From NCBI GenBank assembly GCA_030634545.1, contig DAOWAN010000001.1, forward strand, positions 15,010-79,009: a stretch of 64,000 nt of DNA, in the 5' to 3' direction. Source of the stretch: Candidatus Nanohalarchaeota archaeon. Lineage in GTDB: Archaea > EX4484-52 > B79-G9. How positions within the stretch are numbered: position 1 is the first letter of the stretch; every line of letters starts with the position of its first letter. Below the pieces are notes generated by a model, which saw only the letters and a program-made list of their open reading frames with translations, searched no databases and had not been told where the DNA came from. Positions 32,264 through 58,614 of the stretch are shown piece after piece. The position numbers and the translations under genes are program-made.

Positions 32264-32269
32264 GTGATT

Positions 32270-40437: not shown

Positions 40438-40887
40438 ATGAAAAGTGATGATAAAGCATCTTTTTTGAAAAATGTGGACTTTGATTTAAGTAAAAAAGTT
40501 ACCCGGATTAATTTGAATTCTATGCTTTACCCGCGCACTGTTGTGATGAGAGCAGCATACTCATTTACTGACAGTTTCGATGTCGCTGTCGAAGGAGACG
40601 ATTCATCCAGCATTGTTTTCATCAGGGATAATGGTAATGATAAGCTGACACAAGCGGATTTTGAGGACATTGCCTATCGTTTTTATTCCGAACTGATTCA
40701 TGCAAGTGTTGAAGAGACTCAGGCGCGAAGATACGCAGACACAAGAAATGCACTGATAGGAGCTGCACTGAAATCATTATTTCCTATTACTGGTTCTTTG
40801 AACATACCCAAAGACACAAAATCTCCCCCAATTAAAGAACCTAAATTAAAAAATAATATCAAATCTACAACCAAAAACTGCAAATAA
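40438..40887 (+). CDS. small soluble protein, HxsD-like candidate
   Basis: 149 aa. The pattern YPRTVVMRAAYSFTDSFDVAV...IVFI...FYSELIHASVEE...R.ALIGAAL recalls the His-Xaa-Ser system protein HxsD as I remember that family. It lies directly upstream of the Trp-repeat peptide. This assignment is from memory only. Confidence 0.4.
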   Translation: MKSDDKASFLKNVDFDLSKKVTRINLNSMLYPRTVVMRAAYSFTDSFDVAVEGDDSSSIVFIRDNGNDKLTQADFEDIAYRFYSELIHASVEETQARRYADTRNALIGAALKSLFPITGSLNIPKDTKSPPIKEPKLKNNIKSTTKNCK

Positions 40888-40975
40888 CGATTACAATAAC
40901 AGTTTCCACATAAGAATAAATCCCATAACACTCAATTTATTAGTGCCCTGACAATATAACAAAAAATAAGATGCT

Positions 40976-41299
40976 TTGCAAGTGCGTGGTATTGTGAATA
41001 TTAAAGATAAACTAAAGAAGATAAAGCAAATGGACTTATGGAAACCCGGTGACAATGAAAAGACCGGTGTTGTAAACGGGCTGATTCTCTTGGGTGCTGC
41101 TGTTGGAGCCACGCTGTCTTTCCAGGGTCATGATGCTTGTGCAGATGCACCCCTCTGTAGTAATGATGAATGGGGCAACTGGTCAGACTGGACTAATAGC
41201 TGGAACAACTGGTCAGACTGGACTAACTGGAGTGACTGGAGTGATTGGGAGCATTGGGGCAATTGGGGAAACTGGGGAAATTGGGGAAACGGTGACTAA
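40976..41299 (+). CDS. Trp-Xaa-(Asn/Asp/His) repeat peptide, candidate RiPP precursor
   Basis: The frame is open from TTG 40976, but the most likely start is ATG 41030 (MDLWKPGDNEK...). A hydrophobic helix (GLILLGAAVGATLSF) and HDACADAPLCSNDE are followed by WGN WSD WTN S WNN WSD WTN WSD WSD WEH WGN WGN WGN WGN GD. Synonymous codon variation preserves this frame. Confidence 0.65.
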   Translation: MQVRGIVNIKDKLKKIKQMDLWKPGDNEKTGVVNGLILLGAAVGATLSFQGHDACADAPLCSNDEWGNWSDWTNSWNNWSDWTNWSDWSDWEHWGNWGNWGNWGNGD

Positions 41300-41429
41300 C
41301 CAGTTTGATTGAAATACAGATTATAATAACAAAAGCCTGCAAATGGCTTTATACCGCTACAGACCATGCATGGCAATGTCCTGATTGTATAGTTCAGGTC
41401 GTTACTATCTGGACAAACTGAACCAAAAA

Positions 41430-41767
41430 CCAATAGACCTTAACTATCCGGGCGAATCTCAAAGATTCGCTGGATTTCGCAAATCGTACCGATTTCCTAT
41501 ATCGCCAAAAACGCATGCGTTTTTGCGACACTAAAATTCCCGAGGAATTTTAAGAGTTGCGAAATTAGGAATTGGGTAGCAATTTCGCAATCATAAAAAT
41601 CACAAAGTGATTTTTAATGATCCTAACAAATCACATTGATTTGTTGGATGCTAAAATTGCATCGCAATTTTAAGCATATGGAAAAGTCATATAGTCCATT
41701 TTGAAGACGATAGTCTTCGAAAGCTTGGCATGTAATGCCATGAAATAGTTATGACTTTTACTATATT
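41430..41767. repeat. mosaic hairpin-array intergenic repeat, copy B
   Basis: It shares its 5' end, a 98-nt identical block (41595-41692) and its 3' end with copy A. It shares a 117-nt block (41476-41592, 6 mismatches) with copy C. It ends 2 nt before the radical-SAM gene start. Confidence 0.85.
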
Positions 41768-41769
41768 AC

Positions 41770-43605: not shown

Positions 43606-43625
43606 TAATATCATGTGATTGATTT

Positions 43626-45047
43626 ATGGATGACAAAACATTTGCACTGAATGAATATTTTACAAAATCTTTAGCAGATAATCGCATTCTTGTAACTACA
43701 CGGCATGGTTCATGGTGTGAACTGGACAAAAGAGAGTATGACTTGCTACAAAGACAGAATTTTGAACACGACAAAGTCCTGTTTAAGAAACTAAAAGACA
43801 TAGGCATTATTCTGACAGAAAGTAATGTTGAATCTGTTGTGAAAAGGACTGCCCTGATGTTTGATGATTACAGGCAGCGCAATTTTACATGCGTGATTAA
43901 CCTCACAAATAAATGTAACCTGGATTGTGCATATTGCCTTGCAGAATCAGGTCCAAATCAGGATGAACAGGATATGTCTATTGAGAATATGTATTCATTG
44001 GTAAAATTTATTAATGGCTCTCCATGGGATAGCATAGATATTGAATTCCAGGGTGGAGAGTCTACCCTGCGATTTGATCTTATCAGGAAGTTTGTTGAAA
44101 TTATTGAGAGTAATCTGGATAAGCATAAGGAAATAAGACATTTTGTACTGGTCACAAATCTCACCTGTTTTAATAAAGAGATTGCAGATTATATTGTCAA
44201 AAAGAATTTTCGGATTGGCTCTTCACTGGATGGACCAGAGAAACTGCATGATTTTCAAAGGGCATTTCCTGACGAAAGTGGTTCTTATGAAAAAGTAGTT
44301 TACTGGGCAGATTACCTGAAAAAACGAGGAGTACATATCGGGTTTTCATCTACAATCACAAAAAAAAGTCTTGAATTCGGTGCGCGCGCAATTATCGATG
44401 AATACATGAACAGAGGTATGGAATATGTTATGCTCCGACCGTTTACATCATGTGGAAGAGGTGAGGACAGGACTGACCTTGTGATGGAACCAGAGGATTT
44501 TTTTAAGTTCTGGAAAGATGCTGTCGATTACCTTGTTGAACTTGCAGATAACGGAATATACATGTCTGAAAAGAATCTTGGACAGATGATAAAAAATATT
44601 TTTACACCTTACAGAACATATATGTGCCTAAAAAGACCATGTGGTGCTGCTATTTCCCAGATGTCCTTTATGCAGGATGGCCCGATATATGCATGTGATT
44701 CCGGGAAAAGGATTGAAGCATTGAAGATCGGCAACTATGTCAGTGGAAAATATGCAGATACATTACTAAATAGTCTGCAACTTAGGACTTTGTCTTCTGA
44801 AGCGCAGCCATTGTGTGATACATGTGTATATACTGCATTTTGCGGTACCTGCATAAGCAGGATGTTTTCAAGCTGGTCTGATTCTGTAGGAAGAACACCA
44901 AGGGATTTTGACTGCAAAGTTCACAAGTGGATGTTCACATACATTTTTAAGAAAATGAATGATCCTCGATATGCGAAACTATTTAGCAGACTAGCTGGCG
45001 CCGGGCGCGGTGATGATACACCATGCAGAACGCATGAGGTCAGTTGA
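43626..45047 (+). CDS. radical SAM/SPASM-domain peptide-maturase-like enzyme (HxsB/anSME-like)
   Basis: Motifs are INLTNKCNLDCAYCLA (CxxxCxxC) and FQGGESTL. SPASM-type C-terminal motifs are CGAAISQMSFMQDGPIYACDSG and CDTCVYTAFCGTC. Confidence 0.85.
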   Translation: MDDKTFALNEYFTKSLADNRILVTTRHGSWCELDKREYDLLQRQNFEHDKVLFKKLKDIGIILTESNVESVVKRTALMFDDYRQRNFTCVINLTNKCNLDCAYCLAESGPNQDEQDMSIENMYSLVKFINGSPWDSIDIEFQGGESTLRFDLIRKFVEIIESNLDKHKEIRHFVLVTNLTCFNKEIADYIVKKNFRIGSSLDGPEKLHDFQRAFPDESGSYEKVVYWADYLKKRGVHIGFSSTITKKSLEFGARAIIDEYMNRGMEYVMLRPFTSCGRGEDRTDLVMEPEDFFKFWKDAVDYLVELADNGIYMSEKNLGQMIKNIFTPYRTYMCLKRPCGAAISQMSFMQDGPIYACDSGKRIEALKIGNYVSGKYADTLLNSLQLRTLSSEAQPLCDTCVYTAFCGTCISRMFSSWSDSVGRTPRDFDCKVHKWMFTYIFKKMNDPRYAKLFSRLAGAGRGDDTPCRTHEVS

Positions 45048-45920
45048 ATGGATCTTTTCTGGCTAATCAAATTACTTAGTATTGTTATTGCCCTTCGTTA
45101 TCTGAGGATATTTAGCATGCATTCTGTTGCAATTTATTTAACCGGGGCATTTGCCATGGTTTTTCTGAAACCAAGAGCGCATTATTTCGTACCAGAATAT
45201 ATTTTAATAATGACAGTTTCATTGTTTTTTGCTTATATTTTATCTCTTTCAGTATATGACTTTTTAAGAAATATCAAAAGTATTAAATTTGAATCCATTT
45301 TGAGTAAAGATATTCTTGAAAGATATGGCGACTTCTTTTTTGCCATGTTTGTGATTTCATCCATATTATCTTTTTTTAATCTCCCATTTATCGGGACAAT
45401 ATTTTTTATGATAGTATTTTTTATTGCTCTTGAGATTATCCGCCTTAATATGCATGGCGAAACACAATGGTTCTTTAATTACAGAATATGGTCCGCTGTC
45501 CTTTTTTTGTATTTTGTGTTCTTTAACCAGTTCCCGGTTCTTCTGATTGTTATTCAACAAAGTATTTTTCTATGTGGACTGTTATTTATCTTCTCATTCG
45601 TACGATACTTCAACGTATATGCCTGCCCATTAGATGAACTCAAGGCAGGAATGGTTCCTGCTGAAACAATCATAAAAAAAGGCAGTACATTTACCAAGGA
45701 AAATGTGCCATATATCTCCCCTTTTGTTTATCTCAGGAAAAAAGTGATTAATAAGATATTTAAAAGACATGAACTGATAACTCCTTTCAGGCACTTGACC
45801 AATGACTCCATCAAGATATTGAGAACTAAGACACATTTCGATATTTTAATGGTACAAAGAACTATAGATATGAGCATTTTTTTAATTTTAGGCATCATTG
45901 CAACCTATTTTGTCAGGTAA
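45048..45920 (+). CDS. polytopic membrane protein of unknown function, translationally abutting the SPASM enzyme
   Basis: 290 aa with about 6-7 hydrophobic helices and a basic soluble C-terminal segment. The ATG follows the upstream TGA directly (45047/45048). Confidence 0.55.
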   Translation: MDLFWLIKLLSIVIALRYLRIFSMHSVAIYLTGAFAMVFLKPRAHYFVPEYILIMTVSLFFAYILSLSVYDFLRNIKSIKFESILSKDILERYGDFFFAMFVISSILSFFNLPFIGTIFFMIVFFIALEIIRLNMHGETQWFFNYRIWSAVLFLYFVFFNQFPVLLIVIQQSIFLCGLLFIFSFVRYFNVYACPLDELKAGMVPAETIIKKGSTFTKENVPYISPFVYLRKKVINKIFKRHELITPFRHLTNDSIKILRTKTHFDILMVQRTIDMSIFLILGIIATYFVR

Positions 45921-46335: not shown

Positions 46336-48147
46336 CTAACAAGCAGAATCCGTAGTATGTATACCAGTGCATGAATTACCATCACAATCATTATCTTCTA
46401 CTTTATCAATAAGGATATAAAACTGAAGTGTCGGATTCACCCACTGATTTGTGCTAACATCATAATATTTGTATTTTGCATCTGTAATCTTTACAAGAAC
46501 TTTGATATGTTTCAAAGCATAAAAGTGACCATAGGTCACAGTACAGGTTACTTTACGACACTTAATGGGATTGCCATCAGTGCCACAGTCACCATAACCA
46601 CACGTGCAGCTACTCACACTACAATCACTTTTCATATGATCATGATATGTCAGATAAGCATCAGATCCAGTCTCTACATTATCCCCGCCAGTGCATTCAT
46701 CCGTCCCGGAACCGAAAGAGGTATGATCATTTGTATGACCATCTGCACAGTCCATTCTAATACTTACAGGACCAACGAACTCCCACACCAGATCATCAGA
46801 ATTATAAATCGTATTAAGATTAGTTTCAGCACTATTCAGAGCAGATTGAATAATATTTAAGAAATCATTCTCATCATATTTATCCGTATCATCATTAGGA
46901 CACAAAGGTTCACAGCTATCACAACAACCACCCAGACAGTTACCACTACACTCATCGCAACAATCACGCGTTTCACTTTCACGATGATAGTCATCAAGAG
47001 CATTAAGCCCATCAAATACCTTGTTTTTTATGAGTGTATCAAGATTCAACAAAAGATATTCACCTGCATCACTAAGCGCATAATGCCTGACTTTGATCTC
47101 CTCTTCTATCAGCCCGGAACTCGTTATTGTTACAAGATTATCATCCGGTTTTCCAAACAGGTCTTTTACTGAAAGTGTTATGCCATCTTCCTCAGACCAT
47201 ACTATACCTTTTGTGAAACTACCGGGAATATATATACCCTGCAGTGGTTTGATTTCTGTAACGATATCATTTTCCAGTTCGGAATTTTTTTCGGTAAGCA
47301 GCGTTTCCATATTAGCATGATATTTATTAAGATTTTCTGTAAACAGTTCATTTTGTGCATGTATAATATTATTATCATAAATTGTAATACCTATTTGCTT
47401 TATTACTGCAACCTCATCTACTTCACCAATTGAATTAGTACCATTGAACTGTATAGTCAATGGACATTCATTTCCAGCCGCAAGATTACCTGCACCAATA
47501 TCAGTTATTATGTACTCATATGTCCCGTCATAGGTTATTATATTTGGAGTCGGAATTACCGGTTCAATGGTAATCCCAGGACCCCCTGTAATCTGCACTT
47601 CTCCTTTCTTTATCATAATCAGATTGACAACCATGTGCATATCATATACATCATCAGCTAGTTCCTCTATATACTGTTGAAGTTCACCATCCTTATTAGA
47701 CTTAACGCAATAGTTGAGTTCCCCCACCAGAATATTAGGATCTTTAGCTACCAGATATGGCACTCGCATATCTGTTCTCATGCAGCCCGGAAGCGCCCAA
47801 TAAGGTATCGCTGTAGATCCGCTTTCAATTCTCAGTCTGGGTCCTGTACCATCCACATAGCCATCCGCATTCGTATCGACAAGAGTATCCTCTGGAAAGT
47901 TACCACCCGCCATCAACTCTTCATGCGTTTCCATCAATGAATGAAATGCCGCTGTCTTCTCAAAACCCTGCTTTATATTCTGGATGTTTTTGTCCATTGT
48001 AAGGCTGAAGTATTTATTGTAAAGATTAATTGATTCCTTTGTACCCCATATTAATTCACCGCTTACTCTTAGAATCATGACACCAAGTACAACCATTATA
48101 ATAAATACACTTATCATTACCGTCATATTTGCTTTATTATAGTTCAT
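46336..48147 (-). CDS. large Cys-rich surface protein with pilin-like N-terminal helix
   Basis: 603 aa. The N-terminus is MNYNKANMTVMISVFIIMVVLGVMIL. It contains dense Cys clusters (RDCCDECSGNCLGGCCDSCEPLC) and is the last gene of the minus-strand pilin-like operon. Confidence 0.6.
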   Translation of the reverse strand: MNYNKANMTVMISVFIIMVVLGVMILRVSGELIWGTKESINLYNKYFSLTMDKNIQNIKQGFEKTAAFHSLMETHEELMAGGNFPEDTLVDTNADGYVDGTGPRLRIESGSTAIPYWALPGCMRTDMRVPYLVAKDPNILVGELNYCVKSNKDGELQQYIEELADDVYDMHMVVNLIMIKKGEVQITGGPGITIEPVIPTPNIITYDGTYEYIITDIGAGNLAAGNECPLTIQFNGTNSIGEVDEVAVIKQIGITIYDNNIIHAQNELFTENLNKYHANMETLLTEKNSELENDIVTEIKPLQGIYIPGSFTKGIVWSEEDGITLSVKDLFGKPDDNLVTITSSGLIEEEIKVRHYALSDAGEYLLLNLDTLIKNKVFDGLNALDDYHRESETRDCCDECSGNCLGGCCDSCEPLCPNDDTDKYDENDFLNIIQSALNSAETNLNTIYNSDDLVWEFVGPVSIRMDCADGHTNDHTSFGSGTDECTGGDNVETGSDAYLTYHDHMKSDCSVSSCTCGYGDCGTDGNPIKCRKVTCTVTYGHFYALKHIKVLVKITDAKYKYYDVSTNQWVNPTLQFYILIDKVEDNDCDGNSCTGIHTTDSAC

Positions 48148-48176
48148 TTATTCACTTCATATTTTCTTGTATTCTG

Positions 48177-48842
48177 CTAGACTAGGAGATCTTTGCAACA
48201 ACAGTGATTTATGTCACATGCATATTTATCTTTGCATATACCGCCAAATATCTGACACGTCTTTTTTTGTACACAGTACAAATCATCATCCTCTGGACAC
48301 GTCGATTTATCAGTATCTATTTCAAAATTTTTCTTTATTTTCAATACTGCAATAGCAATCCCATTATTTTTTGGTAGAGCTATGTGTTCCTCTTCTATTG
48401 AGATATCACCTTCATCCAGTTCCCATCCAACTGTCAGATAATTCATATCTCCATATTTCACATAAAAATAGTACTCATCAATGTAGAGTCTATCTGCATA
48501 TTCTTCTATGCATTCTCCTATCTGTATGATATCTTCATTGCCATTATATTCTATTTTAATGTCATCATCTGCATCAGGGATTGGACTTTGCGAAAGTGCT
48601 ATTGCGATTACATCTTTGAGTGGCAGTGTTGTATTTGAAGTGCAGTGATTATTGTTCAAAAGCACATATAGATACGTATCCACAGTTGATGTTTCCTCTG
48701 CAAATTTTAATGTTTCAACTGCCTGTTTTGTGAAAAGTACTTGTGCCAGAATTATCACCACAGCACAGACCAGCAGTATTACCATAGTCAAATAGATGTC
48801 AAACATCATTATTCCCTTCTTGTGCGTGTTTCGTGTATTCAT
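48177..48842 (-). CDS. class III signal peptide (pilin-like) protein, Cys-rich C-terminus
   Basis: 221 aa. The N-terminus is HKKG|IMMFDIYLTMVILLVCAVVIIL and the C-terminus is CPEDDDLYCVQKKTCQIFGGICKDKYACDINHCCC. Confidence 0.6.
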   Translation of the reverse strand: MNTRNTHKKGIMMFDIYLTMVILLVCAVVIILAQVLFTKQAVETLKFAEETSTVDTYLYVLLNNNHCTSNTTLPLKDVIAIALSQSPIPDADDDIKIEYNGNEDIIQIGECIEEYADRLYIDEYYFYVKYGDMNYLTVGWELDEGDISIEEEHIALPKNNGIAIAVLKIKKNFEIDTDKSTCPEDDDLYCVQKKTCQIFGGICKDKYACDINHCCCKDLLV

Positions 48843-48844
48843 AT

Positions 48845-50050
48845 TTACACCTGTTTCAACAATACATTCAACTGTGTTGATTGTCCTGATTTATATAGCA
48901 ACGTGCTTTTTTCATAATCTTCATATCCGTCTTTAGTTATCTTCACATTAACATATCCGGATGTAGAACCAGCTATAACTGTTGAGAAATCTATATTTTG
49001 TATCAGATAATCACCATCTTTATCCGATTCAGTGGAGAATAAATTCTCCGGTATTTCGATTAATGCTCCTTTTATTGGTTCTCCTGTAGCATCATCAGAT
49101 ATTGTTCCTGTAAGGTGCGCGTATATTAATTCGTAATTCTCTGCACATCGTCTGTTTGTTTCACAAATTTCAGATTCGCAACTATCCTTTAATTCTCCAA
49201 GGCACGGCTGACCCAGTATCAATTTGTCAGGTATAGAACCCCCCGCACACTTTTGTTCATCTGTGCAGTCAAATGTTTCACATTCACAATCATTGGAACA
49301 CCCATCCCCTGATTTTTTGATATATGTACATTCTTCTGGCTGACATGTTGCATTTGCCTGCCCCGGACCCTTTATGCAATTCTCTAAAAAGCAATTATTT
49401 ACAGCGTATTTGTAGATATGTGATATATGATCTAACTCTGAACCAGCGATTGTTGTTTTACCTTCGCTTTTGTAATCACAGAACATTTCATCCTGAAGTT
49501 TGTCAGTCCATGTATTTGTCTCAATATTCGCACTAAGTATTGCAGTATGATATTCATCCAGCAATACATATCCGAATTCCTCATCCACAGGTTCACTATT
49601 CGTATTTAACTGTATTATCATGTCGAAGTCAGGTTTCATCTTTTCTATTATCAGCGGCTGATAGTTGCTGAATGTCCATCTTTGCCTGCTCTCAAGATCT
49701 TTTATATCTATCCGGTATTTGATATTGCCAATATCCAGACAGGACAATGTAGCACTATTTAATTCAGAAGAGATTCTTATCTGATCCACAATGAATTTCC
49801 TGATTTCCACACGGTCCCCTAGATTATTATTTGTACAGGGCGCTGTAAGATAATTATTAAACATTGCTATTTCAAGGCTTTCCTCAGATAATATATCTTG
49901 TATCTGTTGTTCATCTGATGTACTTACCATGGAAAATATAAGGAAAAACATTAGTAATGATAATGTAATGAATATAACGATCATCTGAATTGTTTCACCA
50001 GCCATAAAATCACTGAAATAAATTAATGTCATTGTGTGACATATTTGCAA
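48845..50050 (-). CDS. pilin-like N-terminus, Cys-rich middle, carboxypeptidase-regulatory-like C-terminal domain
   Basis: 401 aa. The likely start is MAGETIQMIVIFITLSLLMFF at 50005. The C-terminal GTISDDATGEPIKGALIEI...TDKDG-like beta-sandwich pattern is of the CarboxypepD_reg type. Confidence 0.6.
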   Translation of the reverse strand: MQICHTMTLIYFSDFMAGETIQMIVIFITLSLLMFFLIFSMVSTSDEQQIQDILSEESLEIAMFNNYLTAPCTNNNLGDRVEIRKFIVDQIRISSELNSATLSCLDIGNIKYRIDIKDLESRQRWTFSNYQPLIIEKMKPDFDMIIQLNTNSEPVDEEFGYVLLDEYHTAILSANIETNTWTDKLQDEMFCDYKSEGKTTIAGSELDHISHIYKYAVNNCFLENCIKGPGQANATCQPEECTYIKKSGDGCSNDCECETFDCTDEQKCAGGSIPDKLILGQPCLGELKDSCESEICETNRRCAENYELIYAHLTGTISDDATGEPIKGALIEIPENLFSTESDKDGDYLIQNIDFSTVIAGSTSGYVNVKITKDGYEDYEKSTLLYKSGQSTQLNVLLKQV

Positions 50051-50499
50051 CTATTTTGTTTTATGTCACAGCATTCTTCCCCTGCATCACATATTGTTAT
50101 CTGCGGCTTGCATTCAATTATTCTTTTTGATATGCATATCCTTTCTGTGCCTGCCATATTCTCACTATTAATTACATTTTTCTGGTAATGAGGCATTGCA
50201 AACGAGTGTATCATTCCAGATTCATCTGCAAGAGTGTGCGTTTGTTCAATAAATGTCAGACGTACATGCGTCTCGTTCAGTTCATATGCAAAGTTCTTTT
50301 TCAGATCAAATTGCCTTACACCCTGTTCAACTGTCGCTAGATTCACAATTATACTTGTAATCGCACGTGTTGTCTGATCTGTTATTATGTCAAGTTCTGC
50401 ACCAGTAAGTCCAGTCATCATTTTCGTACCAACAACCACTACAAGAGCAGCAACAATTAACGAACCTAAAATAGTGATAATCTCTACAGTTTCTGACAT
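50029..50499 (-). CDS. membrane-anchored/pilin-like protein (156 aa)
   Basis: The N-terminus is MSETVEIITILGSLIVAALVVVVG and the C-terminus is Cys-rich (CKPQITICDAGEECCDIKQNSC). Confidence 0.5.
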   Translation of the reverse strand: MSETVEIITILGSLIVAALVVVVGTKMMTGLTGAELDIITDQTTRAITSIIVNLATVEQGVRQFDLKKNFAYELNETHVRLTFIEQTHTLADESGMIHSFAMPHYQKNVINSENMAGTERICISKRIIECKPQITICDAGEECCDIKQNSCKYVTQ

Positions 50500-50529
50500 A
50501 TATTACAACCTCTCTTCACTTACTACAAT

Positions 50530-50694
50530 CTATTTCTTTGATGCAACATCCACAATTTCTGCCGGTAGGTTAACAAGTCTCAATATATCAAGAACATTTC
50601 CAAAAACCCGGTTTACTGCAATGACAATCACAGCAGCAGCTAACATCGCAATCAATAATCCACGTATCCAGCGCGGAATTTCCATGACACCCAT
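50530..50694 (-). CDS. small pilin-like protein (54 aa, not in the supplied ORF track)
   Basis: It translates as MGVMEIPRWIRG|LLIAMLAAAVIVIAVNRVFGNVLDILRLVNLPAEIVDVASKK. A GGTGA motif lies 6 nt upstream of the ATG. Confidence 0.55.
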   Translation of the reverse strand: MGVMEIPRWIRGLLIAMLAAAVIVIAVNRVFGNVLDILRLVNLPAEIVDVASKK

Positions 50695-50716
50695 TTATCA
50701 TCACCTGTTTTACATT

Positions 50717-52540
50717 TCACTTTTTAATGCATCCATACTCTGATTTTTGCTCATCCAATTCCCATTCACATATACCAGAACATTCGCCACATATTGTTTT
50801 ACTATGACAGCTCACACAGTCTCCACAGCATTGCCGGTATATTATTATTGTTTCTTCTTTTATGTTGTTATCTTCTCTTTGTTTTTCATTGATGACAGGA
50901 TATATTGCAGTATCTATATTATCTATTCTTACTTTTACTGTGTTCAGTTCACTCTTATCGAAACTGCCTGCACTCAATCCATCAGTAGTTATATCGGATA
51001 TATCAACAGTCTCAGATGGGTCAATTGTTACTTCATTTACATGAACAGTCTCTTCATTACCATTTATTGTGACATACAGGTTCTCCCCGTCAAATGATAT
51101 TGCCTCAGCTCCATTGTTTCTGATTTTTACATTAATATATCTTAAACCAACATCCATAGAACTAAATATAGTATTCTCATCACAGTCTTCAACAGCTTTG
51201 CATGGGTGTATGTCCACAATACTTATATCTGGAGGAGCACTGCATTCATGTGTTCCTTCATTTTCTATAATTGTTCCCTCTCGATATACCTTCTCTGGCA
51301 GATGGCATGCACCTTCTGGTTCATCTGTAACAACATGGGTCAATATATTCACACAGCCGGTTTCGTATTCTGTCTTTAGAGAATATTTACAGACGCCATC
51401 AAGAGTGTATTCACCGTCATCTGAGCGACTGGAGAGAATATATTCCCAGTATTTACCATCATCATCAGTCTCACCATAGCAAAGATATTTTTCCAGATTA
51501 GTACATCTCATACTTGCAGAAACTCTCGCTGTACATACACCAACATCACTACCCTCTGCTTCAATAAGAATATTGAACAGAATCTCTTTTAATTCCCCGT
51601 TGATTTTAGGCATAGTGAAATGATAGTACGAATCACCTTCATTATATTTAAGCCCAAGATCATGAGATGATGCAATTCTACAATCTGCAATAATAACGCC
51701 TGTTTCAGGATGCCTGCATCCACCACCGCTTCCACCAAATATAATCTGCACATCTGCTTTCATATGTGAAGACAATGCTGATTTCACTTCTTTTTTGAAA
51801 TTAACTTTTGTTATATCCTTTGTACCCATCTGATTAAAATTTATGCCCTCAGGAAAACTTGCATCATTCACGCAGGTCCATCTTTTAGTGATTGGCTTGA
51901 CTTCTTCTACATTGAATGATATTTCATAAATCTCGGGCTTGAATTTTTCCAGTTCTGCTTTCTTTTCACATGGCAGTTGAAATTCAACATCACTGCAGAT
52001 GCCGTCACATAATTTGTAATAATCATCAACTAATATTAAAGACACTCCGTCTTTATCCCGTATAGCTATCGCTTCAGTATCATCACCGGTCTTGGGTTTA
52101 ATTTTCATACTAGGATTTACGATATCTTCTTTGAGTGTAAGGGTCATTGTTGAGCATGGCTGAAACTCTCCTTTAAGTGCATAATATTCCGTAGTTGAAG
52201 TACCTGTTGAACCACCTCCGGATGCTTCCTGTTCATCATGAATCTCCTTTATTTTTGTAAATATCTCACCACAGGTAAGTTCACTTTCTTCATACGGCAC
52301 TTCGTTGCACTTTAGCCTTTCATCTTCAGTATATGACTCCCCTGGACATTTTGGCATACATAATGCTTCTTCAAGGTACAATGCAGTTAGTTCAGGACTC
52401 ACATCAGGTATTGCTTCTCTTCCCCCTTCTTCACCCTGAGCTGTGAAAACAGCAAAAAGACCAATAGCTACCACAGCAATCACTAACAGTGCAAACAGAT
52501 GAACTTGACCTTTACAATTATTCCTTTGCATATACATCAA
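50717..52540 (-). CDS. large class III signal peptide protein with CARDB-like domain and Cys-rich C-terminus
   Basis: 607 aa. The N-terminus is MQRNNCKG|QVHLFALLVIAVVAIGL. It has a CARDB-like segment (YINVKIRNNGAEAISFDGENLYVTING) and the C-terminus CCGDCVSCHSKTICGECSGICEW. Confidence 0.6.
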   Translation of the reverse strand: MMYMQRNNCKGQVHLFALLVIAVVAIGLFAVFTAQGEEGGREAIPDVSPELTALYLEEALCMPKCPGESYTEDERLKCNEVPYEESELTCGEIFTKIKEIHDEQEASGGGSTGTSTTEYYALKGEFQPCSTMTLTLKEDIVNPSMKIKPKTGDDTEAIAIRDKDGVSLILVDDYYKLCDGICSDVEFQLPCEKKAELEKFKPEIYEISFNVEEVKPITKRWTCVNDASFPEGINFNQMGTKDITKVNFKKEVKSALSSHMKADVQIIFGGSGGGCRHPETGVIIADCRIASSHDLGLKYNEGDSYYHFTMPKINGELKEILFNILIEAEGSDVGVCTARVSASMRCTNLEKYLCYGETDDDGKYWEYILSSRSDDGEYTLDGVCKYSLKTEYETGCVNILTHVVTDEPEGACHLPEKVYREGTIIENEGTHECSAPPDISIVDIHPCKAVEDCDENTIFSSMDVGLRYINVKIRNNGAEAISFDGENLYVTINGNEETVHVNEVTIDPSETVDISDITTDGLSAGSFDKSELNTVKVRIDNIDTAIYPVINEKQREDNNIKEETIIIYRQCCGDCVSCHSKTICGECSGICEWELDEQKSEYGCIKK

Positions 52541-52741
52541 TTAACATTCACTATAGTTAACAAACAAACTTTCTATGATTATGATTTGACCGAAATAAAT
52601 AATCGACCGAACATTTTGAGCATCAACTCAAAAACTTAAGACATAATCTCAGGATTTTCAACAAATATTGAAAAGCTTCAAACGATAATGAGATGATATA
52701 GGAATCCATACACCATTTAACTGTTAGTGGATTCACTGTAA

Positions 52742-53041
52742 TTATACTGGCAGACACTCTACACCTACACCTTCATCCATACAATTTTCACCAGTACCCC
52801 CCTCTGTGGCCCAGTCAGGGCAATCCCCGCCGTGCAGGCTGCGGCATGAATCACAAAGCCGTTTGCACATCTCTATCTTGATAGTGTTACCACCCTGCTC
52901 TATGGGTTCTATTGTACCAGCTTCTGCTCTTTTTGTTGTACTGTACAGCATAGTGATTAATATAAGTGCCACTACAAGACTGACAACTATTACCATCACA
53001 ATCCATATTGTTTGACTCATTCCTTTTCTCATTTTAATCAC
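52742..53041 (-). CDS. class III signal peptide (pilin-like) protein, 8 Cys in C-terminal half
   Basis: The probable start is ATG 53032, giving MRKG|MSQTIWIVMVIVVSLVVALILI. Confidence 0.6.
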   Translation of the reverse strand: MIKMRKGMSQTIWIVMVIVVSLVVALILITMLYSTTKRAEAGTIEPIEQGGNTIKIEMCKRLCDSCRSLHGGDCPDWATEGGTGENCMDEGVGVECLPV

Positions 53042-53049
53042 TACTGAGA

Positions 53050-53217
53050 TTATGCACTTGGAAACTTTATAACACTGGTTACCATTTCTTCTGCTTTACC
53101 ACCAAGGAAAATATAGAACCCTGCAACAATTACAAGCACAACTATTCCCAGAACCAAAAGCATTGTCTGATTGATTGCCAGCGAGCCATGTCTCGTTCTT
53201 TTAGATATCTTATTCAT
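53050..53217 (-). CDS. small pilin-like protein (55 aa, not in the supplied ORF track)
   Basis: It translates as MNKISKRTRHG|SLAINQTMLLVLGIVVLVIVAGFYIFLGGKAEEMVTSVIKFPSA. A GGGGG motif lies about 7 nt upstream of the ATG. It is the first gene of the minus-strand operon. Confidence 0.6.
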   Translation of the reverse strand: MNKISKRTRHGSLAINQTMLLVLGIVVLVIVAGFYIFLGGKAEEMVTSVIKFPSA

Positions 53218-53345
53218 TAATGTCCCCCTAAATAAATATTAGTTTTTTGTAGTATTTATAGTTTGCATTATTTTCGCATCCGTAGTGAAAATTGCACGCA
53301 ATAATACATAATCTATTTATATGACCAAATATAATATATGGATTC

Positions 53346-53477
53346 ATGGTATGGAAAGGTACGACAAAGGTCCAGATTTTTGTTATTTTAGGTTTTATTC
53401 TGGGATTGGTCTTCCTGCTTTTCTTACTTGGATATTCTATGGATATTCTTAATGTTGATTATGGTGATGTAGCTTGA
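53346..53477 (+). CDS. possible small pilin-like protein (43 aa, not in the supplied ORF track)
   Basis: It translates as MVWKG|TTKVQIFVILGFILGLVFLLFLLGYSMDILNVDYGDVA. No clear SD motif is present. Its stop overlaps the next ORF's TTG start (TTGA). Confidence 0.35.
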   Translation: MVWKGTTKVQIFVILGFILGLVFLLFLLGYSMDILNVDYGDVA

Positions 53478-53662
53478 ATAAAATTCTATCTCTAAAATAT
53501 GGTCGATACCGGAAAGGGTTAGAGTTTGGTACAATATGCAAAGTTATACTGTTTATTGTAACTACAGTTCTTCTCTTGATTGTAATTTCATCAATACTTA
53601 ATAGGGGGATAGCAGAGGCACCGATACCAGACCCATTTACTTCATACAGGAATATTGCATGA
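53474..53662 (+). CDS. possible small pilin-like protein (62 aa, TTG start)
   Basis: The N-terminus is YRKG|LEFGTICKVILFIVTTVLLLIVISS. The competing antisense ORF 53449..53730 has no comparable feature. Confidence 0.4.
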   Translation: MNKILSLKYGRYRKGLEFGTICKVILFIVTTVLLLIVISSILNRGIAEAPIPDPFTSYRNIA

Positions 53663-53743
53663 TATTTTGTAGTATCCAAACAACTGGAGATTACGTTACA
53701 CACATGCAAGTTATTTAAGGTCATAAACACTTACTTAAGTAAT

Positions 53744-54289
53744 ATGCATCATAATACTTCTCGCGGATTAAGTCATATTGAATTTATAGGCAACATTATC
53801 CTTGCCCTGCTACTCCTTTCTATTCTTTTATATCTGTTTGGAAGTGTTTTAGGAGACAAACTCAATGATTATGCGGAAAGACTGATCAATGTTAATGAGG
53901 AACAGATTTATGTGAAGGACTGCATACTGCTTGACAGCGATGCAAATGATTTTGAAAAAGACAGCATCAATAATTTTGTTGTTGACATTGGAGAAGTGAA
54001 CGTGAAAGAGATCATACTTCTTGGAATTTTTTTTGACTGGCAGAAGCCCACAGATGGAGCATACATCAAAGAATGGATGACCACATGCCACAATGGTCCG
54101 GATCTTTTTGATTCACCATGGGAAACCGGAGAAGTAAAATACGACACAGCAATACAATTTACCGAATCAAATGCCTACCAGACAGAAGTTGAATGCGAAA
54201 ATAAGATTGATGTTTCTATAACAATAGGTGACCGATTTTTGGCAGGCAGTGATGCAAAAGTTTATCTGTGCTATAAGGCTGACAGATAA
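53744..54289 (+). CDS. class III signal peptide (pilin-like) protein (181 aa)
   Basis: The N-terminus is MHHNTSRG|LSHIEFIGNIILALLLLSILLYLF. Confidence 0.6.
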   Translation: MHHNTSRGLSHIEFIGNIILALLLLSILLYLFGSVLGDKLNDYAERLINVNEEQIYVKDCILLDSDANDFEKDSINNFVVDIGEVNVKEIILLGIFFDWQKPTDGAYIKEWMTTCHNGPDLFDSPWETGEVKYDTAIQFTESNAYQTEVECENKIDVSITIGDRFLAGSDAKVYLCYKADR

Positions 54290-54307
54290 GCAAAGTAAAT
54301 TATATAT

Positions 54308-57300
54308 ATGAGTAGACCCTATATCTTTTGTATGTCTGTTCAAATGTCAACATCATTACTGGGTGGAATCGTTCTGGGTTTGCTTGCTCTTTTAATCTCT
54401 TTGCAGTTAATCGGCGTTCTTGACGTAATGAATGTTGCAGAGTGGGCTATTGAAAGTTTTACTTTTCTGCTGGAAGAACTGTTCAATATTCGTACAGAAG
54501 AGGATAGAATTGCAATAGAATCCACATCGGCTCTTACTTGTGCAACAGATACTGTTGCGAGGATAAACCAGTTAATTGAAGATGGAGAGGTAATCCCTGA
54601 AAATATATTTGATAGTCCTTCCTGCAGTCAAGGTATGCCTGTCGGGCTTGCCATTGCAAGGAATGCGCCAAGACACGGTCTTATGACTGCGAGAGTGATT
54701 GCTGTAACAGATAAGATTACTGGTGCAGGTATAGCTGACATCGAGAACCCTGATGCTGCTTATGAATGCGGATCAGATGATAATGTAAAAGAATGCGGTA
54801 AAATCGATAACGAGATATGTAAGAAAGGCGAACGCTGTGTTGAGGGTATTGGTCTAGCTGGAATTACCGTATGGGACTGCAAAAAGGATGATACCTGTAT
54901 TCCACCAGCAGAACGCGTCAGCAAAGAATTTTTTCCAGATGCATCATCATTATGTTTTGGTAATGATATGCATGTTTGTGTTTTGTGCGGAACACAAGCA
55001 GATTTGACACCAGATAAGGTCTGCTGCAAGTGTAACTTTGGTGGTGCTATTTCCTATTCTTATGGTTTAAAATGTGGTGGATGCTTTGGCATGACGGGTC
55101 TATGTGAAGATGCACCAAATCAAAATAAATGTAAGGATTTGGGCGTTGAGTTTGTACATTCCTGTGCAGCCGAAGTTTATGAAGATGAACGTAGTTTCCA
55201 ATGCGAAGTACTCGGTTTCGAACTCCCACAGAAAGGACTGGTAGAAGACGAATTATTTAAAAGCGACCCCCTGCTGGGACCAATTAATTACATCGCAGTC
55301 ACAGGAGACCCGAAATATGTTGTTTTTAATGAGAAATTCCCTGAAAGCGTGTCTCAAAACTGGAATCTTCTTGGGGAGGACCTAGCCATAATATACATCG
55401 GTACTGCAGCAGGAATTACACTGCTCACCGATTGTGCAATACCCGGGGTTGGAAAAATGCTTGGAAAGGCAAGTGAAGGTGTTGTTAATACCGGCATCGC
55501 AAAAACTCTTAAAAGCCATGTTGATGATACCAAGAACTTTATCGGAGGTTTTCAGGACGGTGCAACCAATAAAATCAGCAGGATTTTTCTAAAGAGAGGT
55601 CTGAATAAAGCCAAAAAAAACAGCCTTAAAAAACAAGCTGAAAAAAACATAGAGGATATTTCAAGGCTCCCTCTTGCAAAGGAAGATATTTATGCCTTGA
55701 AATGGGAACTTCGTGCCGCTTCTGATTTGAGTGAGACTGCAGAAGATTTGACTGATGAAGCTGCAGAGGAATTAGCGTATGAACTTGGAGAACTCTGGCT
55801 TGTGAAAAATAATGCAGACTTAAGTGATGCTGTACGACAGGAAGCAGATGATAAAATAATAGAAAAACTAGGGAAACTGGAAATCTACCCGAATACCGTG
55901 CCGGATGATGAATATATAATGAATCCAATCATTCGTGCATCCGACGGGCTGGTCCAGATTCACCGAGCACGAAGCCACAGACTCCCCGAACTCACAAATT
56001 TTATGAAGACCGGCTCGATAGTGGTAGAAAATCACGATGTTGATGAAAAAGTACTCCAAAAATTAATCTTCGAAACAACAGACATGTTTCCGGATAAATC
56101 AAAGGTCGATATGGCAGTAGAAGTAATTGTAAAACAGGCATCTGAAGGAGATGCCGCTGCAAAGGGATTCATTTCTGCTGCCGGGGCTATTGCTGATGGA
56201 GATGGTAAAGTAAAGGCTGCCACATTTTTAAAATTAATGAGAGATAACGGGATAACAGGCAAATCATTAGACCCAACAACAAAAAAGGGAGCTGCAACAA
56301 TCGGTCTGGGTCTTGCAATGGTTGGCGCAGCAAAAATTGAGAATATGGACTACCTGCGCGATCCAAGCAACTGCGGAACAAACGCACTATGCCTTTTCGG
56401 GCATGATTGGTCACTCGATATTTCAGCAGACATGAAATTTCAGGGAAAAATGGGTGATGATGCACTAAACCTCCCTCTTGAACTCAAAGAAGCAGAAAAC
56501 GGCGGTCAGTTTTATCTTGCAAGCCCATGCAAAGCAGATATTATACTGACACAATCCAAATGCGAGTGCCGTAAGTTCTATGAAGCAGATATTTTTTATT
56601 CAGACATAGTAATAGAAGAATGGGGTATTAAACTTGTACCTGCGCCGGGACTTGCTCCAGTGTTCATATTTACTATTATTGAAACCTTCACAGTTGAAGC
56701 AAAATTCCCCACAGATTCAACTTACGAATTTAAATATGACGGAGATCCAATAACTTTTAAATTTACTCCAGAAGAAGACGAGAAAAATACTGAAGAAATA
56801 ACGCTTAAAGATGGAGATACAATAACGGATCCATTGGTTCTTGAGCATGCGCTCAGAAGCATGGATAAAGACCAATTAAATCACTGGGTTAGACCAAATA
56901 CCAATTATGAAAAGCAACTTCACAACCCACTTAATGATGATGAACCTAATGAATATAAATTTTCGCGCATGATACGCCAAAATTTGGAACAAGGCGTAAA
57001 CTATAAGAAGTGCATTAAGGGAGACTGGTGGGAATTCTGGCAGGAGAATGAAAATCCAGACTGCATAAAAGTTGAGTTGAAAGGTTATGGCGATTACGAT
57101 CCGAATTTTTGCTTTGAGAAAAAATGGGATGAAGCAAGCAGAGCAGAAGCGGCACTTTTCGGAACAGAAATGGTTGTAGGTGCCGCTGCAGCACTATTAG
57201 CAGCACCGACAGGTCCAGGCGCATTAGTTGCATACTGCGGAACATCAATGGCTGTATCTACTGCAGGTGCATGGGTGCTTGCAGGGTACATGGCAGAAGA

Positions 57301-57328
57301 TAAATGGCCAAACGGCATAAACCAGTAA
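54308..57328 (+). CDS. giant (1006 aa) surface protein with N- and C-terminal hydrophobic anchors and a Cys-rich N-terminal third
   Basis: The N-terminal helix is LLGGIVLGLLALLISLQLIG. About 30 Cys lie in residues 100-330. The C-terminus has hydrophobic segments (VVGAAAALLAAPTGPGALVAYCGTSMAVSTAGAWVLAGYM). No family recognised. Confidence 0.6.
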   Translation: MSRPYIFCMSVQMSTSLLGGIVLGLLALLISLQLIGVLDVMNVAEWAIESFTFLLEELFNIRTEEDRIAIESTSALTCATDTVARINQLIEDGEVIPENIFDSPSCSQGMPVGLAIARNAPRHGLMTARVIAVTDKITGAGIADIENPDAAYECGSDDNVKECGKIDNEICKKGERCVEGIGLAGITVWDCKKDDTCIPPAERVSKEFFPDASSLCFGNDMHVCVLCGTQADLTPDKVCCKCNFGGAISYSYGLKCGGCFGMTGLCEDAPNQNKCKDLGVEFVHSCAAEVYEDERSFQCEVLGFELPQKGLVEDELFKSDPLLGPINYIAVTGDPKYVVFNEKFPESVSQNWNLLGEDLAIIYIGTAAGITLLTDCAIPGVGKMLGKASEGVVNTGIAKTLKSHVDDTKNFIGGFQDGATNKISRIFLKRGLNKAKKNSLKKQAEKNIEDISRLPLAKEDIYALKWELRAASDLSETAEDLTDEAAEELAYELGELWLVKNNADLSDAVRQEADDKIIEKLGKLEIYPNTVPDDEYIMNPIIRASDGLVQIHRARSHRLPELTNFMKTGSIVVENHDVDEKVLQKLIFETTDMFPDKSKVDMAVEVIVKQASEGDAAAKGFISAAGAIADGDGKVKAATFLKLMRDNGITGKSLDPTTKKGAATIGLGLAMVGAAKIENMDYLRDPSNCGTNALCLFGHDWSLDISADMKFQGKMGDDALNLPLELKEAENGGQFYLASPCKADIILTQSKCECRKFYEADIFYSDIVIEEWGIKLVPAPGLAPVFIFTIIETFTVEAKFPTDSTYEFKYDGDPITFKFTPEEDEKNTEEITLKDGDTITDPLVLEHALRSMDKDQLNHWVRPNTNYEKQLHNPLNDDEPNEYKFSRMIRQNLEQGVNYKKCIKGDWWEFWQENENPDCIKVELKGYGDYDPNFCFEKKWDEASRAEAALFGTEMVVGAAAALLAAPTGPGALVAYCGTSMAVSTAGAWVLAGYMAEDKWPNGINQ

Positions 57329-57465: not shown

Positions 57466-58614
57466 TCATGAATCTTTATCTTTAAGTTTAAAGACGCCCG
57501 AAGCAAAAGACTTATCAGGTGTTCCTTTTGCTCCACTATCTTCACGCGGCGTCATTGGTGATGTTTGAGAGAAAAAATCATGCACAGGTGTTCTAACATC
57601 ATAATGTTCATTTGGTTCAAGATCCCATATATTTTTCCATTCAATATCATCTATGCCTATTACTTTTAAGTCATCCAGATTTTCTGTTCTGCCAGTTGCA
57701 TAAATTCCCATCTTATAATCGCTATATTCTAAAAATTTCTTATTATAAACCACCACATGGTGAAGTGTATCGCCATCGGAAACTATACCTGAACAGATAT
57801 CTGGCTTATTCTTGTCCAAAAAATGGTCATCAGTACCCCCCTCCATATATCCCCAACCCCAATATTCCGTAGACTTTTTAAGCATACTGCAATCTCCCTC
57901 TGGAGTCACAAAATACTTAGGGTCAGTAGAATATGGAATTCCATCCACCATTAGCGGAGATGCTTCGTTTTCAGAATCGCCACCATCACCATGATAATTA
58001 TCATCTACGAACTCACCAAGTTTTGTCAATCCTCCATCGGGATCATCAAATTCCCCGTCAGATATTTCTTTTGTCATTTTACTATTTATACCATCCATAT
58101 CAACAGATATTATCCCCTCAGCCTCTTCAACACACCCGGAAGTCATTATTTCAGCATATACTATTGCCCCTGCAACCATCATATATGCAAGTATTTCTTT
58201 TGGTCCTGCGGAGGCAACAGTATTTGCATATAATGTTCCTGCCGTCATCATGACCATGCCCAGTTCATTTTCCTGTGCAGGAGTAAGCATAGTAGTAATA
58301 TCATAATTATCCACTAAATCCGGAAATGCCTGGGCAAATATGTCGTTATATGCCTCGTGAATTTTAGCATCACTATTTACAGAATCATCAAAAATATCTG
58401 CATCAAATCCCGAAAGGTCTGAAAGAAGTTTAGTTGCTACTAATGCGAGAGAGCCTTTTTTGAAATACCCCGGCATATTATTTAATGTCTTACCTGCTTC
58501 CACAATTGCATCTGTGTACATGCGTTCTATATGTTTATAGTTGGGTCTCGTGCCTTGTCCACTACGTATGAATCTTTCTATATTGAATGAATCCCCAGTT
58601 AGATACGATGCCAT
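57466..58614 (-). CDS. hypothetical protein (382 aa)
   Basis: Intact ORF with one internal hydrophobic stretch (MVMMTAGTLYANTVASAG...MVAGAIVYAEIM). It converges on the 1006-aa gene. No motif recognised. Confidence 0.5.
   Translation of the reverse strand: MASYLTGDSFNIERFIRSGQGTRPNYKHIERMYTDAIVEAGKTLNNMPGYFKKGSLALVATKLLSDLSGFDADIFDDSVNSDAKIHEAYNDIFAQAFPDLVDNYDITTMLTPAQENELGMVMMTAGTLYANTVASAGPKEILAYMMVAGAIVYAEIMTSGCVEEAEGIISVDMDGINSKMTKEISDGEFDDPDGGLTKLGEFVDDNYHGDGGDSENEASPLMVDGIPYSTDPKYFVTPEGDCSMLKKSTEYWGWGYMEGGTDDHFLDKNKPDICSGIVSDGDTLHHVVVYNKKFLEYSDYKMGIYATGRTENLDDLKVIGIDDIEWKNIWDLEPNEHYDVRTPVHDFFSQTSPMTPREDSGAKGTPDKSFASGVFKLKDKDS

Follow-up and report, generated by a model that had tools for sequence, protein, structure and literature searches.

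We analyzed a 64,000-nucleotide stretch (hereafter the window, whose numbering is used throughout) of a genome assembly labeled Candidatus Nanohalarchaeota archaeon (GCA_030634545.1, contig DAOWAN010000001.1, positions 15,010 to 79,009 of the forward strand). Among its archaeal genes (diphthamide synthase, a NOB1-type Zn ribbon, and FlaI/FlaJ-type proteins) lies a cluster of twelve genes at 46336-57328, most of whose products resemble pilins at their N termini. The open reading frame (ORF) listing resolves this cluster into two gene strings transcribed divergently, with eight genes on the minus strand (m1-m8) and four on the plus strand (p1-p4), as the original prediction had it; the AT-rich spacer between them (53218-53345) is 128 bp long. 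By eye and without scoring, the spacer shows TTTATA-like elements ∼25 to 45 nt 5' of each first start codon, which are candidate archaeal promoter elements for both operons. Intergenic gaps are short or negative, except for ∼200 nt between m2 and m3, and the 4-nt overlap of p1 and p2 suggests translational coupling. We found no paralogy among the twelve proteins. Every one of them has exactly one N-terminal hydrophobic segment, and p4 has further segments downstream. Among non-overlapping window ORFs, such a segment occurs in 7/7 cluster ORFs of at least 100 aa versus 9/43 outside the cluster, these nine being mostly polytopic transporters or glycosyltransferases. The large products are Cys-rich, as originally claimed, with 3.1 to 6.1% Cys in the eight larger proteins and 1.6 to 6.1% over the nine Cys-containing proteins.

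Substrates of archaeal prepilin peptidases have G, A, or S at position -1, a charged residue at -2, and a hydrophobic H-domain right after the cut; PibD is not very stringent at +1 and +3, and Gln at +1 is a requirement of EppA (PMC4371748). The original prediction assigned this class III architecture to all twelve products and quoted seven N-terminal strings, which are all present verbatim. [K/R/H][G/A] stands directly before the helix in nine of the twelve, with the cleavage-site contexts RHG↓S (m1), RKG↓M (m2), CKG↓Q (m3), IRG↓L (m4), KKG↓I (m7), NKA↓N (m8), WKG↓T (p1), RKG↓L (p2), and SRG↓L (p3), where the arrow marks the predicted cut. Eight of these (m2, m3, m4, m7, m8, p1, p2, and p3) strictly have the residues reported for -1 and -2, and m1 has His at -2 in the window and Lys in its orthologs. 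The H-domain of ∼20 residues begins 0 to 8 residues from the motif. In the orthologs of all nine families, the basic residue and the G/A/S before the helix are retained and the surrounding residues vary. An automated count, which included the motif-less families, found the motif in 37/53 N termini against a G+A+S background of 19%. Because [KRH][GAS] is kept in orthologs that are just 25 to 60% identical, a class III signal architecture is supported, at the level of sequence, for these nine products. For m5, m6, and p4, the hydrophobic helix stands and the signal does not: no m6 or p4 ortholog from the syntenic loci has a basic leader, and m5 has one in some orthologs only.

The minus-strand operon opens with m1 (53050-53217; 55 aa), a helix-only mini-pilin without a globular domain that begins RTRHG↓SLAINQTMLLVLGIV and whose orthologs carry KG↓S-x-x-(I/V)-(N/S)-Q. 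Conservation in its helix region is no lower than in its tail (55% versus 50%), and it is a candidate core or major subunit. The small pilin-like m2 (52742-53041; 99 aa; MRKG↓MSQTIWIVMVIVV) has six Cys in its C-terminal part; RK[GA]↓xSQ(T/S)IWI is kept in seven loci, and the helix is 67% identical versus 45% for the remainder. A giant, Cys-rich, modular pilin-like protein, m3 (50717-52540; 607 aa; NNCKG↓QVHLFALLV), has a conserved [KR][GA] and 29 Cys, with more than 20 Cys columns invariant over seven orthologs. The tiny pilin-like m4 (50530-50694; 54 aa) begins RWIRG↓LLIAMLAAAVIV, and in three related loci (L002-L004) its position is taken by genes with the N termini KKKG↓, RRKG↓, and KRKKA↓. 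The N-anchored m5 (50029-50499; 156 aa; MSETVEIITILG) has no basic leader in the window. Its ortholog N termini differ, reading KKG↓T, RTG↓S, or merely MG↓IEIIK. Its cleavage is uncertain, and its ectodomain is 54% conserved and has six Cys. The next gene, m6 (48845-50050), encodes an N-anchored, Cys-rich protein of up to 401 aa with a C-terminal CarboxypepD_reg domain and probably starts at 50032 or 50005; none of its seven orthologs has the [KR][GA] motif, and they start MN-E-I-I-E. The operon ends with two further pilin-like proteins, m7 (48177-48842; 221 aa; THKKG↓IMMFDIYL), which has a conserved K[GAS]↓ and a C-terminal eight-Cys knot, and the giant m8 (46336-48147; 603 aa; MNYNKA↓NMTVMISVF). 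Just six homologs of m8 were found among 5.8 billion proteins; they keep [KR][GA]↓, and two of them reach ∼1010 aa through FN3-like/Big_7 modules, which are weak matches.

The plus-strand operon begins with two tiny pilin-like proteins, p1 (53346-53477; 43 aa; MVWKG↓TTKVQIFVILGF) and p2 (53474-53662; 62 aa; RYRKG↓LEFGTICKVILF). The p1 slot holds a 43-aa gene with RRA↓GVVNISIIV in L002, and an identical p1 gene is called in L015; the positional orthologs of p2 have 62 to 69 aa and RKG↓, RKA↓, or KSKG↓. The pilin-like p3 (53744-54289; 181 aa; NTSRG↓LSHIEFIGNIIL) keeps [KR]G↓ in 7/7 orthologs. The last gene, p4 (54308-57328; 1006 aa), encodes a polytopic membrane protein, the hallmark of the locus type described below. 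Its N-terminal helix is followed in order by a Cys-rich ectodomain, another transmembrane (TM) helix at ∼359-378, a Cys-free, Lys/Glu-rich helical region, a second ectodomain, and C-terminal TM helices. Its Cys residues number 20 in residues 46-358, none in 379-680, and eight in 689-945, with hydrophobic segments between. Because Cys-rich and Cys-free regions alternate across these segments, the sequence fits a polytopic protein with two ectodomains and a large Lys/Glu-rich cytoplasmic domain, not a pilin. Thus, where twelve pilin-like proteins had been proposed, nine have a pilin-type signal and p4 leaves the set.

Domain searches left the cluster almost bare. The only Pfam family found on its proteins is CarboxypepD_reg (PF13620) in m6, which bears out the original assignment as a borderline match (residues 313-398; 32.8 bits versus a cut-off of 32.3; E 8.7e-8); PF13620 is also precomputed on m6 orthologs. 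The CARDB-like segment claimed for m3 did not hold up: CARDB (PF07705) gave nothing at E≤0.1 with the window protein, nothing at E≤1 with the seven family members, and no profile match in the window protein or six orthologs. A CARDB-like consensus pattern (N.G....TI.G..ETV...IP.GE...IDN.DT..YPV.DE..R..NN) is visible in the m3 alignment (A6) as a resemblance only, without a profile match. Neither a profile search of the Protein Data Bank (PDB) with m3 nor sequence and profile searches of it with m8, m3, and p4 yielded anything significant, and PHROGs gave no matches to the cluster proteins. A virus or mobile-element origin was considered and rejected: p4 and m8 have no IMG/VR relatives, PHROG matches are zero, and chromosomal synteny is conserved. 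An AlphaFold2 (AF2) model of m7 built from five sequences has a mean predicted local distance difference test (pLDDT) score of 73.9, with 73 to 92 in the head domain, and shows a helix at residues 9-51 and, after it, a compact alpha/beta domain. The large proteins have no link to any intracellular family, matches to which would have counted against the original proposal, and none to a known pilin fold either.

The order of the twelve genes is kept in about ten syntenic metagenomic or metagenome-assembled genome (MAG) loci (L002-L004, L006-L015), reached via m8 homologs and a genome scan, with orthologs 25 to 60% identical. In GTDB, genomes with the locus are labeled Candidatus Nanohalarchaeota (kingdom Nanobdellati, that is, DPANN), and a small episymbiotic lifestyle is plausible for the organism through this affiliation. 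One contig labeled Methanosarcinales archaeon (L010, JAIWAJ010000064.1) has the same locus, with protein N termini nearly identical to those of L002; since it is this close to L002 while all other genome hits are labeled Nanohalarchaeota, it is probably mis-binned. The ENA ZHAN22-2 metagenomes hold two related populations in one sample series (L011-L014 versus L015), one with the window's own version of the locus and the other with a diverged version in which m7 is 65% identical. In the diverged version, FN3-like/Big_7 modules bring the m8 ortholog to 1006 aa, and the Hxs-like region that adjoins the cluster (see below) contains an inserted HEPN/nucleotidyltransferase pair.

The wider distribution of the locus was traced through p4. 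A full HMMER search of 1.84 billion representative proteins returned 74 relatives, a third homolog search with a 34-sequence alignment returned close relatives only, and a scan of GTDB genomes with p4 alone returned nothing. Family members are mostly ∼850 to 1500 aa long and share the motifs SMxALxCAxN, CxVxxFELPQ, NDPxYxVYYExFPxG, RFYLASPCKADL, NYCID, and LASPCKADL as well as a C-terminal TM helix followed by KWP. The distant relatives mostly begin with MxKK[G/A]↓ and a helix, unlike p4 itself, and those with names come from Candidatus Woesearchaeota and Nanoarchaeota MAGs, where they are annotated "hypothetical". A metagenome scan gave 31 p4 loci, and in all the long ones the p4 homolog sits amid 10 to 20 consecutive genes, nearly all of which encode MxKK[G/A/S]↓ plus a helix. 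These sister clusters (L023, L024, L026, L033-L035, L037, L042, L045, and L048, all metagenome contigs) comprise at least twelve conserved families without Pfam matches, many with Gln at +1, for example KG↓QGLSLNTIIIAAI and KS↓QMEIMG. A bona fide Pfam T2SSG (pseudopilin) domain occurs in a protein of one sister locus, and a VWA neighbor is seen at a second. Of the window proteins, p4 matches the sister clusters at E 1e-39, and m2, p3, and m1 match weakly and N-terminally driven; no others match. Among these weak similarities, m2 resembles an ∼110-aa "KG↓QGLSLNTIII" pilin-like family (E 1e-5), and the N-terminal profile of p3 resembles small pilin-like proteins (E 6e-7), both E values coming from a small database. 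Because p4 relatives sit inside runs of class-III-like genes, the window cluster belongs, on this sequence-level evidence, as a divergent example to an unannotated type of "multi-pilin" locus that recurs in DPANN. No description of such a locus type turned up in the literature searched, which does not prove that none exists.

Several other genes recur at these loci. A 382-aa protein without a family match (57466-58614, minus strand) is convergent on p4 and is a possible partner; its homolog occupies the same convergent spot beside p4 homologs in L020, L022, and L015 and was not found in L002-L010. At this position, the distant clusters have a protein of ∼200 to 235 aa that carries an N-terminal TM helix and to which no homology was detected. 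The sister clusters are commonly flanked by genes for an RPA-like OB-fold protein and a YdjM membrane hydrolase, and in some of them an APH-like membrane kinase is embedded with AbrB/MazE-like and Lrp-type regulators. A membrane protein of 611 to 627 aa inside distant clusters was tried as an EppA-like peptidase and rejected, being an APH-type kinase-like protein.

The cluster proteins also bear signs of exposure at the cell surface. They contain six N-X-S/T sequons versus 21.9 expected, compared with 109 versus 88.3 in the remaining window, and their orthologs in L002-L004 contain 20 versus 63.4. This ∼3- to 4-fold depletion, with no sequons in any m3 or p4 ortholog examined (for m3 itself, none versus 3.7 expected), is unusual because archaeal pilins are normally N-glycosylated (PMC4371748), and it suggests selection against N-glycosylation of the surface proteins of the cluster. 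Sequon avoidance makes sense only for proteins that meet the external N-glycosylation machinery. The Cys residues of p4 all fall in segments predicted to lie outside. Together with the CarboxypepD_reg domain and the FN3-like/Big_7 modules of m8 orthologs, Cys placement and the scarcity of sequons make adhesin-type extracellular features plausible.

Candidate filament machinery lies 26 kb from the cluster on the same contig, where the original prediction had placed an ATPase, two T2SF-domain proteins, and a canonical pilin; T2SSE and T2SSF matches and the N terminus of the pilin confirm all four. The FlaI/TadA-like ATPase (15650-18166, minus strand; 838 aa) matches Pfam T2SSE at 3.9e-31 and NCBIfam FlaI at 1.7e-81, below the cut-off of the latter; it also has a score for the bindosome BasE model, a weaker one than for FlaI. 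The two platform proteins, which are TadC/FlaJ-like (14763-15632 and 13767-14756, minus strand), match Pfam T2SSF at 1.5e-13 and 1.3e-16. The pilin (19672-20094, plus strand; 140 aa; KRLG↓QAATEYLIVIA) has no Pfam match and has Gln at +1 and Glu at +5, as in EppA substrates (PMC4371748). One ATPase with two platform genes is the layout of "system 1", which has been reported in methanogens and DPANN, where it comes with numerous pilins, a major pilin that is helix-only, and pilin loci standing alone (bioRxiv 10.64898/2026.04.22.720090). As a side observation, the ATPase gene contains a tandem repeat (17555-17983; 4.9 copies of an 87-nt unit at 95% identity) that encodes 29-aa Lys-rich units (GQSLKKAKDEIRKKMQKVNDSSKGKSGST) within an N-terminal extension of ∼330 aa. 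The polytopic 290-aa membrane protein next to m8 (45048-45920, plus strand) was tried as an A24 prepilin peptidase and rejected because D71 and D95, its candidates for the two catalytic Asp residues, are replaced in orthologs; its sole match is a sub-threshold one to a non-catalytic Arc_PepC domain (E 0.035), and NCBIfam gave none.

This conserved 290-aa protein is the last member of an HXS-like (His-Xaa-Ser) radical-SAM operon (40438-45920, plus strand) that converges on m8. HXS systems comprise HxsB, HxsC, and HxsD together with an HxsA effector that bears the His-Xaa-Ser repeats. The operon begins with an HxsD-like protein (40438-40887; NCBIfam 40 versus a cut-off of 50, hence below it) and a small peptide of ∼90 aa (40976-41299), which has a hydrophobic segment and C-terminal Trp-x-x repeats (NWSDWTNSWNNWSDWTNWSDWSDWEHWGNWGNWGNWGNGD) and has neither His-x-Ser nor a peptidoglycan-binding domain. 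There follow a double-domain HxsC (41770-43605), which passes its NCBIfam cut-off (300 bits versus 268), and an HxsB-like enzyme (43626-45047), which stays below its own (300 versus 370) and whose second-best matches are maturases of Cys-rich peptides. The operon stands beside the cluster in L002-L004, L006, L007, and L011-L014, that is, in every locus of the clade that reaches that far, and this adjacency is kept even where the operon is internally rearranged. The distant p4-type clusters have no radical-SAM neighbors. Bacterial HXS is an envelope-located anti-phage system, ∼99.7% of which is found in Pseudomonadota (PMC13128918), and an archaeal variant with Trp in place of the His-x-Ser repeats is notable in itself. 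A functional link between the operon and the pilin-like cluster is possible, if weakly supported.

Upstream of the operon, a block of ∼10 kb (29773-40216) between a U32 peptidase pair and the Hxs-like genes holds three paralogous PMT_2-type glycosyltransferases (522 to 580 aa), three radical-SAM genes, a GT2 gene, and an LPG-synthase-like membrane protein. Since U32 lies close to the Hxs-like genes in the relatives L002, L004, and L007, the block has the look of inserted genes for cell-surface glycosylation. Elsewhere in the window, a 689-aa fusion (5698-7767, plus strand) joins a KAP-family P-loop NTPase to a long array of HEAT/PBS-lyase repeats, an architecture that is frequent in conflict and defense contexts. 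Rfam and tRNA scans of the window found no RNA genes.

We read the cluster as the structural genes of an archaeal type IV filament of the Epd/Tad kind, and we put the probability of this at roughly 55%. The reading starts from the gene layout, the N-terminal architecture, the conservation of the motif, synteny, and the p4 family with its context; cleavage, polymerization, the identity of the machinery, and adhesion or host attachment are the steps that we infer from these. The shape of the m7 model, a 43-residue N-terminal helix ahead of a compact domain, also speaks for it, as do the machinery genes on the same contig. The proteins would be inserted into the membrane by Sec/SRP, and the cut after [K/R][G/A] would be made by a class III signal peptidase of the A24 family whose gene would lie elsewhere in the genome. 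The FlaI-like ATPase and the two TadC-like platforms (13.7 to 18.2 kb), or another such set, would then extract and polymerize the helices into a surface fiber or a short pseudopilus. The best candidates for the fiber core would be m1 (55 aa) and m2 (99 aa), because they are small, stand first in the operon, and have helices conserved as expected for core subunits. Whereas p1, m4, and p2 (43, 54, and 62 aa) would be tiny helix-only pilin-like proteins, p3, m7, m8, and m3 (181, 221, 603, and 607 aa) may act as minor or "modular" pilins displaying Cys-rich binding modules, and m5, m6, and p4 would be uncleaved N-anchored or polytopic proteins that probably anchor or organize the structure at the membrane. 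The large modules, disulfide-stabilized and not N-glycosylated, would attach to a target that in DPANN is plausibly the host cell.

A number of results weigh against this reading. The motif is absent from three of the twelve proteins, and the helices of the large proteins are conserved less well than their ectodomains (28 to 37% versus 37 to 54%), as would also be the case for plain membrane anchors. In none of ∼40 related loci does an ATPase or platform gene occur within ∼10 kb, so that the pairing of the cluster with the ATPase 26 kb away is one of inference. The original prediction saw no prepilin peptidase in the window, and indeed an A24 peptidase is found neither in any ORF of at least 100 aa across the 64 kb nor in the 4 kb upstream. 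Structure prediction followed by Foldseek, which had been proposed as a check, worked in part: the m7 model had no PDB match at E≤1e-3, pilin or other (the best, at 0.04, being ribosomal uS3), and the AF2 model of m8 built from six sequences (pLDDT 48) was unusable for a fold search. Pfam pilin families matched none of 54 N termini, a scan without power since the canonical pilin at 19672-20094, included as a control, also failed.

Most of these points would also suit ordinary signal-anchor (type II) envelope proteins that remain uncleaved and form a Cys-rich coat or complex independent of filament machinery, the motif reflecting the positive-inside rule. The weaker conservation of the large-protein helices, the lack of a detected pilin family or fold, the missing peptidase in the window, the absence of an ATPase near any related locus, and the fact that m5, m6, and p4 clearly work without the motif all agree with such a coat. 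We nonetheless consider it unlikely. The positive-inside rule accounts for the basic residue and not for the small residue after it, and it does not predict G/A/S after the last basic residue across nine unrelated families and their orthologs. Moreover, the distant clusters have stereotyped MxKK[GA]↓ starts, often with Gln at +1, exactly like known archaeal pilins, and helix-only proteins of 43 to 62 aa make poor components of a surface coat. Were the proteins plain anchors after all, the locus would still be a conserved cell-surface module, if a less remarkable one. Somewhat more doubtful is an assembly of true class III substrates into a short pseudopilus or bindosome-like structure that serves substrate capture, envelope architecture, or secretion and not adhesion. 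Class III signals are also found on the substrate-binding proteins of bindosomes, and for most FlaFind positives no part in a pilus is known (PMC4371748); the ATPase scores against BasE, though more weakly than against FlaI, p4 resembles a membrane base, and none of the proteins clearly stands out as an abundant major pilin with a globular domain. On the other side, no ectodomain matches a solute-binding protein or enzyme family, no ABC transporter is in the locus, and m1 resembles the helix-only major pilins of true pili (Epd/Flp).

The neighboring HXS-like operon raises the further idea that it forms, with the cluster, an envelope defense or barrier in which cross-linking of the Trp-repeat peptide (and perhaps of the Cys-rich tails) by the radical-SAM enzymes would give rise to a modified surface structure and so prevent virus entry. 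The conserved adjacency of the operon to m8 in every clade locus extending that far, the envelope-located anti-phage role of bacterial HXS (PMC13128918), and the affinity of the HxsB-like enzyme to maturases of Cys-rich peptides speak for it, but operon and cluster are transcribed separately and toward each other, the operon comes with a small precursor peptide itself, no radical-SAM genes neighbor the distant p4-type clusters, and synteny inherited within a single clade may account for the adjacency. We therefore regard a joint defense system as very improbable. A bolder extension of the filament reading would make the window cluster and the Woesearchaeota and Nanoarchaeota clusters one undescribed, DPANN-wide organelle derived from a type IV filament and built round p4 as a host-contact base. 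In such an organelle, p4 (of a ∼1000- to 1500-aa family with a pilin-like N terminus) would couple the cell interior to a short fiber of adhesins that are giant, disulfide-locked, and deliberately non-glycosylated, and the window clade would co-inherit the HXS-like Trp-cross-linked peptide system at the same envelope. We hold this to be speculative and unlikely as it stands.

The filament reading finds its closest parallel in the Epd pilus, or "system 1", of Methanococcus maripaludis and relatives (PMC4858521; PMC3875500; bioRxiv 10.64898/2026.04.22.720090). Shared with this system, which has been reported in DPANN, are one ATPase of the FlaI/TadA-like type accompanied by two platform genes, numerous class III proteins with at least five minor pilins, a major pilin without a globular domain, large adhesin-like components, and stand-alone pilin loci away from the ATPase. 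Unlike in Epd, the twelve structural genes stand 26 kb from the ATPase in a locus of their own, without a dedicated EppA-like peptidase; they match no Epd pilin or adhesin family and have no DUF2341/PilY-like domain, their +1 residue is mostly not Gln, and the 1006-aa polytopic protein has no described counterpart. A set of non-paralogous pilin-like proteins accompanied by a very large protein also recalls the minor-pilin tip complexes of bacterial type IV pili (T4P) and type II secretion systems (T2SS) with PilY1 or GspK, which are thought to prime assembly, sit at the fiber tip, and mediate adhesion (PMC7541494). There is, however, no sequence relation and no detected fold relation to these; the signal is of the archaeal type, with a charged -2 and no conserved Glu at +5, and p4 spans the membrane and has a cytoplasmic domain, unlike a secreted beta-propeller adhesin. 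The fusion of a short pilin module to bulky modules is known from the modular pilins PilB and PilC of Streptococcus sanguinis, for which several hundred residues are documented and a role as tip-exposed adhesins is proposed (PMC8179133). Those are bacterial, with the N-methylation motif IPR012902 and recognizable vWA or lectin modules, whereas the cluster modules are unannotated and Cys-rich, the only recognizable ones being the FN3-like/Big_7 modules of some m8 orthologs, and CarboxypepD_reg sits on m6, which itself lacks a cleavage motif. Finally, large class III ectodomain proteins at the cell surface are also found among Sulfolobus bindosome (Bas) substrates, and ArlF/ArlG-type archaellum proteins have an uncleaved pilin-like N-terminal helix, apparently as in m5, m6, and p4; the cluster differs from both in having no solute-binding domains, ABC transporter, archaellin genes, or detected sequence similarity.

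In light of these parallels, the number and size of the proteins, which the original prediction called unusual, were overstated: archaeal T4P loci with at least five minor pilins, large adhesins, and conserved cysteines have been described (PMC4858521). Most likely, then, the kind of locus, an archaeal type IV filament locus, is known, and what is new are the unannotated families, the giant polytopic hallmark protein, and the wider distribution in DPANN. The subunits encoded in the cluster are all "hypothetical proteins", practically without Pfam coverage. In DPANN, pilin genes mostly go by the label "not annotated" (PMC9563170; PMC4858521). Host recognition and attachment by DPANN archaea are poorly known, and the locus offers a concrete and conserved set of candidate subunits, with the p4 family (FELPQ, NDPxYxVYYExFP, LASPCKADL) as a searchable marker for multi-pilin loci in other DPANN lineages.

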